Origin: Candidatus Nealsonbacteria bacterium
Lineage (GTDB): Bacteria; Patescibacteriota; Minisyncoccia; Minisyncoccales; JAGMDC01
Direction: 5' to 3'
Assembly: GCA_030643485.1 (NCBI GenBank)
Contig: DAOWLG010000038.1
Span: forward strand, 1 to 58,424
Length of the DNA stretch: 58,424 nucleotides
Position 1 is the first letter of the stretch. The number at the start of each line of letters is the position of its first letter. The notes under the pieces were generated by a model. It was not told the DNA's origin. It saw only the letters and a program-made list of their open reading frames with translations, and did no database searches. This document shows positions 3,545-56,763 of this stretch, piece by piece. The position numbers and the translations under genes were made by a program.

Positions 3545-4276
3545 TCACTCCAATTTACCAAATTTATTTAAGAATTTTTTCCATTTTCCAAAATCTCGCG
3601 CGCTAAAATGTTGCCTATCTTGGTCTTTGAAAAAAGAAATGCCTTTTATAGAATCTCCCATAATCTTTTTAAAATTATTCACAGACATAACTAAAAAATG
3701 AGGTTTATCATTATTATCAATCAAACACCAAATATAAAAATGATATTTATCTTTTATTAAATCTCGTGGTTTCATATCTACCGCGTAAGTATTTTTTGAT
3801 TTTCCATTTTTATATTCAATTCTTGAACTTTTTACCTGAATTGTGCGAAATTTTGTTGTATAATTTTTACTTCCGCATTCACAAAAGTGATTAATCATTT
3901 CTATTTCTCCACCACATTTATCACAAGATGGTTGATTAATTAAATTTTTACTTCCACACTTTACGCATTTAGTTTTATTGCCAATCATTTCATACTTACA
4001 ATCAAGACACATTTTTTTAGCAATTATTTTACTTTTTTGAATTTTTGAAAAATCTTTACCACATTTTTTACATACTAACTTAGGAGTCAAATTCCAATTT
4101 TTTCCACAATCTTTGCAAACATGTTTATGAATTATAAAATCTATGTATTCATCGTAAACAGGATCATAAACATTCCACCCGTATTTAGATAATTCAAAAG
4201 ACACTAAAAATTCTCCATAACGAGAAAAATGTTTTGCGCTTAAACCAATTGTTGTTTTTTTCTTTTTTTTCCGCAT
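3545..4276 (-). CDS. Putative type II restriction endonuclease (Hjc/PD-(D/E)xK-like) with three inserted zinc ribbons
   Basis: GEFLVSFELSKYGWNVYDPVYDEYIDFIIHK ... three CxxC..CxxC pairs ... RTIQVKSS fits an E/D...D...(E/Q)xK nuclease core. Adjacent to a methyltransferase. Start uncertain (4276 or 4300). Confidence 0.55.
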   Translation of the reverse strand: MRKKKKKTTIGLSAKHFSRYGEFLVSFELSKYGWNVYDPVYDEYIDFIIHKHVCKDCGKNWNLTPKLVCKKCGKDFSKIQKSKIIAKKMCLDCKYEMIGNKTKCVKCGSKNLINQPSCDKCGGEIEMINHFCECGSKNYTTKFRTIQVKSSRIEYKNGKSKNTYAVDMKPRDLIKDKYHFYIWCLIDNNDKPHFLVMSVNNFKKIMGDSIKGISFFKDQDRQHFSARDFGKWKKFLNKFGKLE

Positions 4277-5498
4277 AATTAAATTCCGAAATATCAACAA
4301 ATTTATTATTAGATAGATTAGATGCTAAACTTTTTTTTATATTTTTCAAACTTGCGTCGCGGAACATTTTTTTATTTATTTCAATACCAATACCAATTCT
4401 ATTTAATTTTTTTGCTACAATTACGGAAGTAAAACTTCCCCCAAAAGGATCTAATACCTTTTCTCCTCGATAAGTGAACATTTTTATTGTAAATTCTGGT
4501 ATGCTTTCTGGAAAAGGAGCGGTATGACCAAGAACATTTTCGCCTCTGCTATTTATTTTAATAACTGGAGAAAATTTCAAAACATCTCTCCGCCATTTTT
4601 TAATAAAATCTTTTGAAATTTCATATTCTTTTGACTGATGAGATTGTGTTATTAATGTTTTCAAAGAAAACCTTTTTCCGCGATTGCTTTTGCTTCGCTC
4701 AAAACATTCTAAATTCTTACATTCCCAACTCATTAAACCAATTTCAGATTGCGTATTACCGTTAACTTTTAATGTTCCGCAAATAGGACAAGGATAACGG
4801 GTATTATCTAATCTATGTTTATGAAATATCAAAATATGTTCATAACAATTAGCAGGATATTGATAAAAAGGATAGGGACGATTTCCATTTTTATGTCTTT
4901 CGGTTTGAACTTCGCCTTTATCCCAAATAAAATCATCAACAAATGTAAATCCTTGTTCTTCAAAAATTTTAATAAAATACGCACCAAGAGGTAATCTTCT
5001 TTTTCCCCAGACAGATTTTGTTTTCAAATTATCATTATCAAAAATATCGCCGATATTAAAAACAAATACACGATGATTGTCTAATACTCTGTAAGACTCA
5101 CAAATGATTTTGCGCATATCTTCTAAATACTCGTTTAGATTTTTCCATTGGGAATAATCGCGGGCATTATAGTAAGGTGGAGATGTAACCATAACATGAA
5201 TTGACTCAGATTTCATTCCCTGCATAACTTTTAGGCAGTCTCCCCAAATTATTTTTATTCCATTATCTTTTTTTTCTATAAATGTAGATAATTTATCGTT
5301 AACACCTTGATATTGTCTTTGATAATCTTCTTTGACAAATTGAATATAAATTTCAGAAAAACTTTTAATTATTTCATCGCGATTTTTTGATTTTCTTAAA
5401 TATGCAATCTTTTTCAAAAATTCATCTAAACGACCTTTAGAAAAAGTTTTTAATAAATACCGTTCGCTTATTTTCAAAATTTTATCTAAATAAAACAT
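4194..5498 (-). CDS. DNA methyltransferase (N4-C/N6-A, beta class) with an internal zinc ribbon
   Basis: Motif IV VTSPPYYNARDY precedes motif I VLDPFGGSFTSVIVA. Insertion CPICG...WECKNLEC. The 3' end overlaps the nuclease ORF by about 80-100 nt. Confidence 0.85.
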   Translation of the reverse strand: MFYLDKILKISERYLLKTFSKGRLDEFLKKIAYLRKSKNRDEIIKSFSEIYIQFVKEDYQRQYQGVNDKLSTFIEKKDNGIKIIWGDCLKVMQGMKSESIHVMVTSPPYYNARDYSQWKNLNEYLEDMRKIICESYRVLDNHRVFVFNIGDIFDNDNLKTKSVWGKRRLPLGAYFIKIFEEQGFTFVDDFIWDKGEVQTERHKNGNRPYPFYQYPANCYEHILIFHKHRLDNTRYPCPICGTLKVNGNTQSEIGLMSWECKNLECFERSKSNRGKRFSLKTLITQSHQSKEYEISKDFIKKWRRDVLKFSPVIKINSRGENVLGHTAPFPESIPEFTIKMFTYRGEKVLDPFGGSFTSVIVAKKLNRIGIGIEINKKMFRDASLKNIKKSLASNLSNNKFVDISEFNYAEKKEKNNNWFKRKTFFSLWRIFSVF

Positions 5499-5535: not shown

Positions 5536-5619
5536 CCCCACACCTATTGAGGATATGCGAATTCATAAAATGAATTCGCCCCTGTCGCCTTCGGCGACTA
5601 ATCCTTAATAGGTGTGGGG
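5536..5619. repeat. CCCCACACCTA three-way-junction palindromic element, copy A
   Basis: P1 is CCCCACACCTATTGAGGAT/ATCCTTAATAGGTGTGGGG. It encloses hairpins GCGAATTCAT-AAA-ATGAATTCGC and GTCGCC-TTC-GGCGAC. Confidence 0.85.
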
Positions 5620-5646: not shown

Positions 5647-7920
5647 ATGAAAATAATGGCAAATGTGAATTTATCTACTTTAATTGAACAAATTCCTGGA
5701 ATTGGCGCGGTTTTTCAGAAAAAACTGAAGAAATTGGGGATTAAAACGGTCCGGGATATTTTGTATCACTTTCCTCATCGGTATGAGGATTTTTCTAATA
5801 TCGTTCCTATTTCAAAAGTTAAATTTCACCCCGTTAGAAAATCAGAAAAAAAAATCAAAGGTCAATCCCGTCTTCTTAAATTTTCTAACGGGGTAAATGA
5901 AACAGTATGCGTTCAAGGCAAAATTCTGGAAATCAAAAACGAAAAAACCTGGAAAAAAAGAATGTTTTTAACCCAGGCAGTAATTCAGGATAATACCGGA
6001 GCCATAAAAATTGTCTGGTTTAACCAGCCCTATCTAACAAAAACCTTAAAACAAGACGACAGTATTTATTTGGCAGGAAAAGTTGCCTTGGGCGATGACG
6101 GCGCCTATCTTTCCAATCCCGCGTATGAAAAAATTACAAATTACAAATTACAAACAGATGACTTAATTCATACCGGGAGAATTATTCCGGTCTATCCAGA
6201 AACAGAAGGGCTTTCCTCGCGATGGCTTCGGTATATTGTAAAGCCGTTGTTGGTAGAATTATCAACGCAAATTCCGGAAATTTTACCCAAAGAAATAATT
6301 CAGAAAAATAATCTCTTGTTGCTCAAACAAGCGATTTGGCAAATCCATTTTCCGGATTCAATGGATTTGGCAAAAAAAGCGCAGAAACGTTTTTCTTTTG
6401 AAGAACTTTTTCTAATTGAATTGGCTGTGATAAGCGCAAAAATGCGGTTAAACAAAGAACAATCCACGGCTATTCCAATGGATGTTAAATTGATGAAAAA
6501 ATTTGTTAAATCCCTGCCATTCAAGTTAACTGACGCTCAAAGAAAATCTGCGTGGCAAATTCTAAAGGATTTAGAAAAACCTTGTCCTATGAACCGCCTC
6601 TTGGAAGGAGATGTCGGCTCTGGAAAAACCATAGTGGCGTTAATGGCTGCTTTGGAAACAATAAAAGCCGGTTATCAGGTTGCGCTTATGGCTCCAACTG
6701 AAATTTTAGCAAAACAGCATTTTCAAGGCGTTTCTGCTTTACTAAAAGATTTTAATATCAACATCGGGCTTCTTACAGGAAAAGAAGACAAATTTGTGTC
6801 GCGAAAATTAAAACAAGAAGTAATAGAAATTTCCCGCCGAAAATTATTAGAAAAAACAAAAAATAGCGAATTAGATATTTTAATCGGCACTCACGCCTTA
6901 ATTCAAGGTAAAGTAAAATTCGGAAATCTGGCTTTGGTAATCTTGGACGAACAACACCGCTTCGGCGTTGACCAGCGCGCACGGCTTTGCCAATCCCAAG
7001 CAATCCAAACCAATAAAAACAAAAATATTTCACTCCTACGCACAGTTGCAACTGTGCGTAGGAGTGTTCCGCATTTGCTATCTATGACTGCCACGCCTAT
7101 CCCCCGGACTTTAGCACTGACCATTTACGGCGATTTGGATTTATCTTTAATTGACGAATTGCCAAAAGGAAGGAAAAAAATTATTACTAAAATAGTGGCG
7201 CCCGCAAACAGGCAAAAAGCATATAATTTTGTAAAAAAAGAAATCAAAAAAACAAGGCAGATTTTTGTGATATGTCCAAGGATTGAAAGCCAAAAAGACA
7301 AAGAAAATATAGATACTGCTTCTTCATGGGCAAATGTAAAATCAGTTGAAGACGAATACGAAAAATTGTCAAAAGAAATTTTTCCAGACGCGAAAGTAGA
7401 AATGCTTCACGGAAAAATGACGCCAAAAGAAAAGGAAAAAATAATGAAAAATTTCAAAAATAAAAAAACAGATATTTTGGTTTCCACTTCAGTGATTGAA
7501 GTGGGAATTGATGTGCCCAATGCCACGGTAATGTTTATTGAAGGAGCGGATAGATTTGGCCTGGCTCAACTTCATCAATTCAGAGGAAGAGTAGGAAGGT
7601 CAAAATATCAATCCTATTGCTTGCTGTTCACCGACTCGCCGGCTGTTAAAACCCGACAGCGGTTGAGGGCATTAATCACCTCTGAAGATGGATTTAAGCT
7701 TGCTGAAAAGGATTTAGAAATTAGGGGAGCTGGTGATTTTTTCGGCGCGCGGCAGTGGGGCATATCTGATTTAGTGATGGACTCCCTAAAAGATATAGGT
7801 TTAGTGGAAAAAACCAGAAACGCGGCGCAAAAGATATTAGAACAAGACCCGGAATTAAAAAATTATCCCCTGCTTCAAGAACGCCTACAAAAATTCCAAG
7901 AAAAAATCCACTTGGAATAG
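5647..7920 (+). CDS. recG: ATP-dependent DNA helicase RecG
   Basis: GDVGSGKT, ILDEQHRFGV, SMTATPIPRTLA, QLHQFRGRVGR. N-terminal wedge/OB region. Confidence 0.95.
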   Translation: MKIMANVNLSTLIEQIPGIGAVFQKKLKKLGIKTVRDILYHFPHRYEDFSNIVPISKVKFHPVRKSEKKIKGQSRLLKFSNGVNETVCVQGKILEIKNEKTWKKRMFLTQAVIQDNTGAIKIVWFNQPYLTKTLKQDDSIYLAGKVALGDDGAYLSNPAYEKITNYKLQTDDLIHTGRIIPVYPETEGLSSRWLRYIVKPLLVELSTQIPEILPKEIIQKNNLLLLKQAIWQIHFPDSMDLAKKAQKRFSFEELFLIELAVISAKMRLNKEQSTAIPMDVKLMKKFVKSLPFKLTDAQRKSAWQILKDLEKPCPMNRLLEGDVGSGKTIVALMAALETIKAGYQVALMAPTEILAKQHFQGVSALLKDFNINIGLLTGKEDKFVSRKLKQEVIEISRRKLLEKTKNSELDILIGTHALIQGKVKFGNLALVILDEQHRFGVDQRARLCQSQAIQTNKNKNISLLRTVATVRRSVPHLLSMTATPIPRTLALTIYGDLDLSLIDELPKGRKKIITKIVAPANRQKAYNFVKKEIKKTRQIFVICPRIESQKDKENIDTASSWANVKSVEDEYEKLSKEIFPDAKVEMLHGKMTPKEKEKIMKNFKNKKTDILVSTSVIEVGIDVPNATVMFIEGADRFGLAQLHQFRGRVGRSKYQSYCLLFTDSPAVKTRQRLRALITSEDGFKLAEKDLEIRGAGDFFGARQWGISDLVMDSLKDIGLVEKTRNAAQKILEQDPELKNYPLLQERLQKFQEKIHLE
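5828..5894. repeat. Inverted repeat (15-nt arms) inside the recG coding sequence
   Basis: ACCCCGTTAGAAAAT (5828-5842) and ATTTTCTAACGGGGT (5880-5894). In frame, encoding HPVRKSEKKIKGQSRLLKFSNGV. Confidence 0.8.
7031..7066. repeat. Perfect 36-nt palindrome inside the recG coding sequence
   Basis: CACTCCTACGCACAGTTG|CAACTGTGCGTAGGAGTG encodes SLLRTVATVRRSV. It lies between the DEQH box and the SMTATPIPRT motif. Confidence 0.85.
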
Positions 7921-28208: not shown

Positions 28209-28261
28209 AATTTTTAATTTTTTTACATCTATTCAATTGTTTTCGACCTTTTCCCACACCT

Positions 28262-28342
28262 ATTGTGGATATGCGAATTTGTGAAACAAATTCGCCTTGT
28301 CGCCTTTGGCGACTAATCCACAATAGGTGTGGGATTTCCGTC
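28262..28342. repeat. CCCACACCTA three-way-junction element, copy B
   Basis: P1 CCCACACCTATTGTGGAT/ATCCACAATAGGTGTGGG. P2 GCGAATTTGT-GAA-ACAAATTCGC. P3 GTCGCC-TTT-GGCGAC. Confidence 0.85.
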
Positions 28343-28709: not shown

Positions 28710-28801
28710 CCCCACACCTATTCAGGATATGCGAATTTGTTTCACAAATTCGCTGTTCATCAAGCCTTTATGGCTTGATGGAATCCTGAATAGGTGTGGG
28801 G
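28710..28801. repeat. CCCCACACCTA three-way-junction element, copy C
   Basis: P1 CCCCACACCTATTCAGGAT/ATCCTGAATAGGTGTGGGG. P2 GCGAATTTGT-TTC-ACAAATTCGC. P3 is replaced by CATCAAGCC-TTTAT-GGCTTGATG. Confidence 0.85.
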
Positions 28802-29361: not shown

Positions 29362-29433
29362 CCCCACACCTAATAAGGACTGACTTCGTCAATTTTAGAC
29401 GCCTTCGGCGTCTTGTCCTTATTAGGTGTGGGG
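29362..29433. repeat. CCCCACACCTA element, variant copy E
   Basis: P1 CCCCACACCTAATAAGGAC/GTCCTTATTAGGTGTGGGG encloses the hairpin AGACGCC-TTC-GGCGTCT. Confidence 0.85.
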
Positions 29434-55785: not shown

Positions 55786-56607
55786 ATGTTATTTGACACT
55801 CACGCGCATCTTAATTTTGCCGCTTTTAGTAAAAACAGAGACAAAATCATAAAAAATTGCCAGAAAAATAATGTCTGGTTAATAAATGTTGGCATAAATT
55901 ATGAGACATCAAGAAAAGCAGTAGAGATTGCGGAAGAAAGTTCTCAAGGCATATACGCCGCAATCGGACTTCACCCACAAGAAATTTTAGAAGAAAGGTT
56001 TGACTTTGAAAAATATAAGAACCTTGCCATAAGTTCTAAAAAAGTTAAGGCAATCGGCGAGATTGGCTTGGATTATTGGCACAAACCAAAAACCAAAAGC
56101 AAATTAGCCGAGTTTAAGCAGAAACAAAAAGAATTGCTTTTGCAAGAAATCAAATTAGCCCATGAATTAAATCTGCCCATAATCTTCCACTGCCGAATGG
56201 CGCACGACGACCTTATTGAGCTTTTGACGAGACCCGTTCTCGTCCGCGCGCGGACGAGAACGGGTCTCGTCCCGCTCACCCTTAATGGCGTTATCCATTG
56301 TTTCACCGGAACCTGGCAGCAAGCGCAGAAATTTTTGGCTCTGGGATTTTATTTAGGATTTAATGGAATTATTTTCAAAAAAATTAAGGGAATTTCATTT
56401 AATGAAGTCATTAAAAAAACTCCATTGTCTCGGATTTTAATAGAAACCGACTGCCCGTTCCTTACCCCGCCGCAAGAAGGCGATAAAAGAAACGAGCCAA
56501 TTTTTGTAAAACACATTGTTCAAAAAATTGCTGAAATCAAAAATATCTCTTTTGAAAAAATAGCAAAAGTCACGACTCAAAACGCCAAAAAACTATTCCA
56601 CATCTAA
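55786..56607 (+). CDS. tatD: TatD-family metal-dependent hydrolase/DNase
   Basis: FDTHAHL, GEIGLDY, IFHCRMAH, IHCFTG, ETDCPFL. Confidence 0.9.
   Translation: MLFDTHAHLNFAAFSKNRDKIIKNCQKNNVWLINVGINYETSRKAVEIAEESSQGIYAAIGLHPQEILEERFDFEKYKNLAISSKKVKAIGEIGLDYWHKPKTKSKLAEFKQKQKELLLQEIKLAHELNLPIIFHCRMAHDDLIELLTRPVLVRARTRTGLVPLTLNGVIHCFTGTWQQAQKFLALGFYLGFNGIIFKKIKGISFNEVIKKTPLSRILIETDCPFLTPPQEGDKRNEPIFVKHIVQKIAEIKNISFEKIAKVTTQNAKKLFHI
56226..56271. repeat. Perfect 21-bp-arm palindrome inside the tatD coding sequence
   Basis: GACGAGACCCGTTCTCGTCCG-CGCG-CGGACGAGAACGGGTCTCGTC encodes TRPVLVRARTRTGLV. It lies between the HCR and HCFTG motifs. Confidence 0.9.
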
Positions 56608-56703: not shown

Positions 56704-56717
56704 TTATTATTATTCAA

Positions 56718-56753
56718 GACCCGTTCTCGTCCGAGCACGGACGAGAACGGGTC
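56718..56753. repeat. Intergenic twin of the tatD palindrome
   Basis: GACCCGTTCTCGTCCG-AGCA-CGGACGAGAACGGGTC, followed by TCGTCC as in the coding copy. Confidence 0.9.
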
Positions 56754-56763
56754 TCGTCCGGCT

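Follow-up and report, generated by a model that had tools for sequence, protein, structure and literature searches.

The 58,424-nucleotide contig DAOWLG010000038.1 of Candidatus Nealsonbacteria bacterium (assembly GCA_030643485.1; hereafter, the whole contig is called the window and the assembly the source genome) contains a recG gene whose coding sequence is interrupted, in frame, by two palindromic segments. We consider it very likely that both are copies of dispersed, non-coding hairpin repeats that inserted into recG and have been kept as stop-free whole codons in permissive, disordered loops. The first segment (insert 1) would be a miniature transposon that inserts at the tetranucleotide TNNA and duplicates those 4 bp; the second (insert 2) would be a solo member of a palindrome family in which longer copies stand on both sides of a cassette with a gene of the Trp-repressor family. 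The two inserts are probably translated, as loops of 23 and 13 residues, with little effect on RecG. The features concerned are as follows, in the coordinates of the window:

5647-7920, plus strand: recG, 757 amino acids, intact, host of both inserts (open reading frame, translation, homologues, Pfam and a PDB match)
5828-5894, no strand: insert 1, a 67-nt hairpin element of the CCCCGTTAGA...TCTAACGGGG family (sequence, fold and family copies)
5824-5892, plus strand: the 23 codons added by insert 1, F60-G82, FHPVRKSEKKIKGQSRLLKFSNG (protein alignments, and codon comparison with the empty sites of L008, L010 and L011)
6991-7029, plus strand: AT-rich stretch SQAIQTNKNKNI directly before insert 2, about 6 further extra residues in the variable loop
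7031-7066, no strand: insert 2, a perfect 36-nt palindrome CACTCCTACGCACAGTTGCAACTGTGCGTAGGAGTG (18+18, no spacer) of the CACTCCTACGCA...TGCGTAGGAGTG family
7030-7068, plus strand: the 13 codons (39 nt) added by insert 2, S462-V474, SLLRTVATVRRSV (DNA comparison with five RecG genes)

An earlier note on this DNA had placed the two palindromes at these positions, in frame in recG, and both the sequence and our recomputation agree. The source genome comprises 765 kb in 72 contigs (34.6% GC). The product of the open reading frame (ORF) at 5647-7920 has the Pfam domains RecG_wedge, DEAD, Helicase_C and RecG_dom3_C and matches RecG of Thermotoga maritima (1gm5; E = 1e-145) in a comparison with the PDB. 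All helicase motifs are kept, and the motif columns are invariant in an alignment of 120 sequences. Its homologues carry the RecG name and come from metagenome-assembled genomes of Parcubacteria, Minisyncoccales or Nealsonbacteria type.

The arms of insert 1 (5828-5842, ACCCCGTTAGAAAAT; 5880-5894, ATTTTCTAACGGGGT) are perfectly complementary over 15 nt each and enclose a 37-nt loop; the element is in frame and free of stops, and encodes HPVRKSEKKIKGQSRLLKFSNGV (residues 61-83). As RNA, insert 1 folds at -21.7 kcal/mol (z = -6.2 against shuffled sequences) and insert 2 at -28.8 kcal/mol (z = -8.5). These hairpins are the strongest local folds in recG, where palindrome 2 gives the lowest energies over 60-nt windows (-30 versus a median of -7.9). 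The source genome contains 209 perfect inverted repeats (arms of at least 11 nt; GC content of at least 0.4), compared to 3-5 in shuffled genomes, and 76 of the 179 strong inverted-repeat loci lie within long open frames. The fold z-scores and this excess over shuffled genomes indicate that the recG palindromes did not arise by chance.

Both inserts are lineage-specific. RecG of T. maritima and of Escherichia coli is gapped at both sites, and the closest homologues (72% identity by BLASTP, 703-722 amino acids) have neither insert. Insert 1 is missing in 115 of the 120 aligned RecGs; the 23-residue insert at this site is carried only by P0001 (the window), P0019, P0024, P0049 and P0115, while SLLRTVATV, at site 2, is found in P0001 only. 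Relative to the empty-site homologues, the length added at insert 1 is 69 nt, that is, the 67-nt element plus 2. At site 2, the relatives read ...ATT CCG CAT and the window reads ...ATT T(palindrome)TT CCG CAT. This second site falls in a loop of variable length that connects helicase motifs II and III (DEQH to the SAT-type motif III). The spacing from DEQH to MTAT is 46 residues here versus 26-30 in relatives, in line with the roughly 20 extra residues that the earlier note had seen between DEQHRFGV and SMTATPIPRT. In an AlphaFold2 model built from the 120-sequence alignment (mean predicted local distance difference test score, pLDDT, 77.9), residues 61-83, which stand ahead of the first strand of the wedge domain, and residues 451-470 are coil with pLDDT below 50, both between well-modelled elements of the core. 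The low model confidence, together with the gaps relative to solved RecG sequences, suggests that both inserts form exposed loops. In Rfam, nothing came near threshold at either hairpin; the best match over insert 1 was RAGATH-8 (13.6 bits versus a gathering threshold of 86.7).

Further copies of each palindrome occur in the source genome, some intergenic and some in frame in housekeeping genes. The ends of the insert 1 element, ACCCCGTTAGA and TCTAACGGGGT, are found as about 16 paired copies of 31-107 nt (31, 34, 56, 61, 67 and about 100 nt). By Pfam analysis of long ORFs, in-frame copies lie in genes for a GatA-type amidase, YbeY, a GtrA protein and an HD-domain protein; the YbeY domain is cut into two by its hairpin copy. 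Others are intergenic. The family extends far beyond this genome: when one genome per prokaryotic species (GTDB) was scanned, at least 120 stretches matched ACCCCGTTAGA-N5-35-TCTAACGGGGT. Among the matches listed are Omnitrophota, many classes of Patescibacteria, Planctomycetota, Nitrospirota, Desulfobacterota, Elusimicrobiota, Bacillota and Cloacimonadota, as well as a Rhizobium and two archaea. The 11-base core of the arm is letter-identical in Patescibacteria, Planctomycetota, Nitrospirota and archaea. Four other genomes have 37-155 arm matches each, versus 0-1 for a reversed control pattern, which corresponds to roughly 18-78 element copies each. In 120 distinct copies, arm positions 12, 13 and 14 are variable yet complementary in 92, 86 and 70% of cases, and pairing at positions 15-16 is at chance level. 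This pairing pattern implies that the element consists of a 14-bp stem and a free interior: its terminal inverted repeat has 11 invariant bases (CCCCGTTAGA plus the flanking A/T) followed by three covarying pairs, and the interior is variable.

The flanks of the copies carry the trace of insertion. Around CCCC...GGGG, 80 of 127 copies have the pattern T-xy-(A...T)-xy-A, which is a 4-bp TNNA repeat, and the two TNNA are identical in 76 of 126. The commonest target is TTTA/TAAA, in the oriented context N-TTTA-Y. The gatA gene provides a direct comparison. In ten relatives the empty site reads GTA GAY GTT (V-D-V); the filled site of the source genome reads G TAGA CCCC...GGGG TAGA TGTA, with 33 nt added. 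The target duplication is real: the host TAGA occurs once in the relatives and twice here.

A 4-bp duplication has a consequence for genes. If the length L of an element is counted from ACCCC to GGGGT, a copy adds L+2 bases, and the frame is kept only when L = 1 mod 3. This is the case in 33 of 36 copies within open frames of at least 150 codons versus 25 of 71 outside ORFs, a comparison that is partly circular, since frame-breaking inserts destroy the very ORF to be counted. The overall excess of such lengths (73 of 127) is due entirely to the genic copies. Two frames of the element are readable, as xPVR...SNGV or as TPL[ED]...LTG[F], and the third has TAG and TAA stops. Selection would filter which genic copies persist, so that those that preserve the frame and lack stops remain.

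Could the extra residues instead be ancestral RecG sequence that most lineages have lost, with palindromic DNA that is merely fortuitous? The earlier note had set this possibility against insertion. The five RecGs with the 23-residue insert have similar residues (..EK..K.Q..LLKFS) in the same loop, and they are scattered across the tree, as an ancestral segment might be. However, many phyla share the arms, which stand at about 16 other places in the source genome; the five inserts form two classes 6 nt apart, each at a site that fits TNNA; and the segment is absent from RecG of T. maritima and E. coli. As for insert 2, this RecG is the only carrier, and copies of the palindrome stand at other genomic loci. 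The three homologues in which the residues come without an intact palindrome have decayed arms and represent a separate insertion 6 nt away. Together, the family copies and the gatA target duplication effectively refute an ancestral origin. It is also highly improbable that the palindromes are artefacts of assembly or amplification, or that they are removed or bypassed before the protein is made. Perfect palindromes can be produced by chimeric amplification, but other samples, assembled independently, have insert 1 in the same position (L005; L006, L007, L009), both families recur on other contigs, and the genic copies follow a length-mod-3 and no-stop rule that is relevant only if they are translated. 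Moreover, amplification chimeras would be far longer than arms of 15-18 nt.

The history at site 1 can be read from its five carriers. In the first class, formed by the window (P0001) and L005 (P0024), the element stands after the K codon (AAA TTT C-ACCCC...GGGGT-A AAT GAA). In the second class, formed by L006, L007 and L009 (P0019, P0049, P0115), it stands before the K codon and its arms have decayed. The empty site GTT AAA (A/T)TA AAT GAA fits the TNNA rule in both cases: the second class corresponds to TTAA, in the V-K codons, and the first to TAAA, in the I/L-N codons. The loop has thus been hit at least twice, 6 nt apart. The second-class carriers are not rejected as a clade (approximately unbiased [AU] test, p = 0.66; the constrained tree is better), so that a single old insertion followed by decay explains them.

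The first class is less simple, and several of its properties weigh against our reading of insert 1 as a plain selfish element with a 4-bp target duplication. The AU test rejects a clade of the window and P0024 (p = 5.5e-5; log-likelihood difference, 178.7); in the tree, each is a lone carrier among closer non-carriers. Nevertheless, these non-sister RecGs share the odd flanks TTCA and TAAA. Their arms are perfectly kept, with one compensatory pair change (T-A versus C-G), and their interiors differ by about 40% (by eye, two sequences). The recG copy itself has no intact duplication, with TTCA on its left and TAAA on its right, and the same non-identical pair surrounds 9 unrelated copies from other phyla, a pattern that a simple 4-bp duplication leaves unexplained:

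Window 5825-5898: the recG copy with its TTCA/TAAA flanks
L068, L069, L075, L110, L039, L046, L053, L123 and L127: the 9 unrelated copies with the same flanks

The kept arms and the covariation at arm positions 12-14 hint at a constraint on the hairpin beyond the plain decay of selfish DNA. With TTCA/TAAA occurring in 9 unrelated copies, on the other hand, this flank pair may reflect a variant of the mechanism and not a mutation that the two RecGs share. Recombination was considered as the source of the shared insert and rejected: in all 60-column windows, the N-terminus included, P0002 resembles P0001 more than P0024 does. The first-class copy is either a recurrent insertion at the same site or an old insertion with many precise losses.

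What kind of enzyme might move such an element? An enzyme that makes staggered cuts (DDE-like) is favoured by the true duplication at gatA; one that reads the hairpin stays conceivable, given the covariation of the stem and the oriented target. The candidate of the latter kind is a Y1 (HUH) transposase, related to the REP-associated tyrosine transposases (RAYTs) or to IS200-IS605, which would move the family as single-stranded hairpins, the flanks being cleavage or target sites instead of genuine duplications. We regard this as unlikely. It would account for a stem that is defined by pairing (positions 12-14, with 15-16 at chance), for the oriented N-TTTA-Y context and for the non-identical TTCA and TAAA flanks of the 9 copies and of the recG copy, and PF01797 (Y1) proteins are encoded in all four high-copy genomes. 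However, the host's own TAGA is duplicated at gatA, and by inspection the flanks vary within one genome and do not track the stem triplet. The source genome has copies of the element and no PF01797 match, at 85% completeness. An element copy lies within a few hundred bases of only two of the nine Y1 genes examined, none of which is bracketed, and 6 of 14 control genomes encode PF01797 proteins as well. An association with Y1 genes or RAYTs is not supported. We also rejected the idea that the variable stem triplet guides the choice of the flanking tetranucleotide; by inspection, the same triplet occurs with many flanks. In an Omnitrophota genome (G440:C102; L147:1892-1950), a PF01797 Y1 transposase-like frame itself hosts an in-frame hairpin near its C-terminus, read as FTPLEAKEQQEKSKVPLTDF.

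Two negative results bear on any parent element and count against a miniature transposon with a full-length relative. No transposase was found between arm pairs 0.4-4 kb apart in the source genome and 120 loci, a search whose patterns cannot span long gaps, and no long element with CCCCGTTAGA ends was found among the arm positions listed for the four high-copy genomes. The sole case with arms 0.4-4 kb apart, L089, was rejected as a parent insertion sequence (IS), as it consists of pilin leaders encoding LTGFTLIE and one short copy. On this Riflebacteria contig (L089:1314-2238), the arm CTAACGGGGTTTAC also encodes LTGFT, the prepilin cleavage motif (..SLTGFTLIE..), and one of the pilin leaders contains a complete element copy; the overlap between arm and leader sequence may be a coincidence. 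A further variant of the family, 56 nt long with arms ACCCCGTTAAATAA, forms part of a mosaic repeat of 110-170 nt at several contig ends of the source genome. The variant was ruled out as an IS, being part of this intergenic mosaic, which probably causes the assembly breaks. The mosaic repeat is found at:

C5:1326-1465
C13:10183-10354
C27:14966-15062
C66:3141-3190
C67:1-140
C71:46-231

Insert 2 belongs to a different and much smaller family. Its outer 12 bases, CACTCCTACGCA, occur three more times in the source genome, which makes a family of four copies. The other three are:

C56:11071-11098: a perfect 28-nt copy, in frame in mnmA (tRNA_Me_trans domains)
C40:14442-14485 and C40:15061-15104: two identical 44-nt quasi-palindromes

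Between the two C40 copies is a gene for a 179-residue protein with the PF01371 (Trp-repressor family) domain (55.6 bits versus a cut-off of 27), its ATG 18 nt from one copy and its stop codon 18 nt from the other. In G006, a genome of the same family, the same two neighbour genes are adjacent, about 96 nt apart, with no regulator and no palindrome between them; the junction retains a homologous terminator and a promoter-like stretch. Of 25 related genomes, only 4 encode a homologue of the regulator; in G008 and G015, its gene is directly preceded by a 28-nt palindrome whose outer bases are similar (AsTCCTr), and no palindrome follows it. Elsewhere, the family is represented by 8 metagenome stretches, mostly intergenic and some nested in other repeats. 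Most simply, palindrome 2 is probably the recognition site of the putative DNA-binding regulator on C40, the gene and its palindromes form an accessory cassette, and the copies in recG and mnmA are strays that chanced to keep the frame.

The link to a Trp-repressor-family gene makes a purely selfish nature less certain for insert 2, and a cis-regulatory role through a DNA-binding protein is open for it. This weighs against insert 2 as a simple dispersed repeat, as does the size of the family: it has four copies, and none was found in 400 other Patescibacteria genomes. In the strongest form of the regulatory explanation, palindrome 2 in recG and mnmA is a roadblock or operator site of the C40 regulator, or one of the hairpins, perhaps that of insert 1 too, tunes the expression of recG. 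The two longest palindrome-2 copies do flank the PF01371 gene upstream and downstream, the G008 and G015 regulators have their palindrome directly upstream, and the mnmA copy has the same length as theirs, 28 nt. Furthermore, the two hairpins are the most stable structures in recG, and the arms of insert 1 are conserved and covarying. Against this, the spacing of the outer half-sites is 4 nt in the 28-nt copy, 12 nt in the 36-nt copy and 20 nt in the 44-nt copies, a variation that misfits a single duplex-binding dimer. The unequal spacing argues against all copies being equivalent duplex operators, although it is irrelevant if the hairpin form is recognised. Both sites lie deep in coding sequence, away from promoters, and close RecG relatives have neither insert. 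The arms of insert 1 have decayed in three RecGs, and its target duplications and cross-phylum scatter are typical of mobile DNA. We therefore consider a functional cis-element quite unlikely as the general explanation, and prefer inserted repeats for both segments.

A broader picture is possible, and we offer it tentatively. Insert 1 may belong to a hitherto undescribed superfamily of minimal (about 30-110 nt) mobile hairpins served by a widely shared enzyme that reads the 14-bp stem and TNNA; separately, the PF01371 gene and its own palindromes may constitute a new small mobile cassette that sheds solo copies into recG and mnmA. The persistence of such a superfamily in gene-dense genomes would come largely from its being translatable in two of three frames, in both orientations.

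RecG of this order has been a repeated target. Among the homologues P0002-P0120, more than 15 other positions of the alignment carry small lineage-specific inserts. Several of these inserts contain repeat-like peptides, for example SPYARQKASYGGSTVAFGKGG and ARPKTSYGGSARD. A second, different RecG site, after GTHALI, has NPVR...SNGV in P0008, P0011 and P0117.

The surroundings of recG contain other repeats. Directly upstream, at window 5536-5619, is a member of another inverted-repeat family, with arms CCCCACACCTAWT and a span of about 70-92 nt. It recurs at window 28252-28334, 28710-28801 and 29362-29433, and has about 20 copies in the genome, apparently all intergenic. The largest genic palindrome family of the source genome is a different one, with a GAGACCCGTTCTC core and perfect palindromes of 42-52 nt. 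By inspection, more than 20 of its copies lie inside long ORFs, the tatD of the window included. The earlier note had listed tatD as a similar case, and the palindrome at 56226-56271 indeed falls within a TatD_DNase ORF. Copies of this family are located as follows:

Window 56226-56271 and 56717-56754: GAGACCCGTTCTC-family palindromes
Many further contigs of the source genome: GAGACCCGTTCTC-family palindromes

Finally, the divergent ORF upstream of recG (window 4194-5498, minus strand) has an SPPY motif (TSPPYYNARDY), from which we take it to be a candidate N4/N6 DNA methyltransferase.

Rickettsia is the textbook case of selfish palindromes that are translated within essential genes. An ultra-reduced Patescibacteria genome of free-living type now shows the like, with such hairpins in dozens of its genes. 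The frame filter across phyla amounts to a natural experiment in the tolerance of protein loops to insertions, and the lineage-specific loops that derive from hairpin elements confound annotation and alignment. For the family of insert 1, the question is which enzyme can mobilise an element of 31 nt whose ends are the same in bacteria and archaea, and palindrome 2, with its bracketed helix-turn-helix (HTH) gene, is a testable lead on the origin of one such family.

How do these inserts compare with known systems? In the literature, we found nothing relevant on palindromic in-frame elements of Patescibacteria or the Candidate Phyla Radiation, or on the arm sequence. The PF01371 gene with a palindrome directly upstream resembles an autoregulated HTH repressor such as the Trp repressor or YerC-YecD. 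Unlike these, the palindrome also stands 3' of the gene, the unit is missing at the syntenic site of a relative, and shorter copies lie in frame inside recG and mnmA. A 95-bp element of another genome, with ends YCCCGTTAGAAAT, allows a similar reading. We presume that a likeness to integron attC sites can be rejected, as the order of GTTAGA and TCTAAC is wrong relative to the R''/R' boxes.

The repetitive extragenic palindromic (REP) sequences and REPINs are stem-loop repeats with single units of 20-40 bp, often in inverted dimers, that form GTAG- and CGTC-tagged superfamilies and are associated with RAYT transposases (PMC3733652). Intragenic REPs have been catalogued, and many reside in genes for replication and repair (Di Nocera et al. 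2013, PMC3733652). The inserts of recG are likewise short stem-loop repeats sitting inside genes. However, the arms of insert 1 have neither a GTAG nor a CGTC tag and come with a target duplication, and the CTAC...GTAG of palindrome 2 is paired, 5 nt inside the ends, rather than being an unpaired terminal tag. In contrast to REPtrons, none of the nine Y1 genes examined in the four high-copy genomes is flanked by the repeats, and the source genome has no PF01797 match.

The Rickettsia palindromic elements (RPEs) are closer in their behaviour. According to PMC10969869, they are about 100-150 bp long and restricted to Rickettsia (Ogata et al. 2000, 2002), and they are dispersed palindromes, intergenic as well as in frame in unrelated housekeeping genes, that are read as peptide segments where the fold tolerates them. 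Here, too, in-frame copies (in recG, the gatA-type amidase, ybeY, GtrA and HD-domain genes, and mnmA) exist beside intergenic ones, and the inserts fall in predicted coil with pLDDT below 50, at gaps relative to solved RecG. The present elements measure 28-107 nt (36 and 67 nt in recG), their host is a Patescibacteria genome, and the family of insert 1 spans many phyla with a clear 4-bp target duplication; it is by size and host, not by consensus, that we set them apart from RPEs. The RPE-like reading of the earlier note therefore holds as a functional resemblance between in-frame palindromic repeats, and we do not extend it to the Rickettsia families themselves, since the elements are much shorter and insert 1 has the hallmarks of another class.

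That class is the MITEs (miniature transposable elements with inverted repeats), such as Correia, ERIC and BOX, which have terminal inverted repeats and a target-site duplication, are non-coding and present in many copies, and occasionally fuse in frame with host ORFs (PMC10969869). The family of insert 1 has shared terminal inverted repeats, about 16 copies here and at least 127 elsewhere, and a target-site duplication; except for a known parent IS, it agrees with MITEs in every defining property. It differs from them in that many copies are only 28-35 nt long (two arms and a loop), with an interior that is not conserved between copies, and in that the 11-nt core of the arm is identical across phyla and in two archaea. 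What goes beyond the known picture is a minimal hairpin transposon that crosses phyla and has a measurable frame filter, together with a palindrome family that is tied to a bracketed HTH gene.

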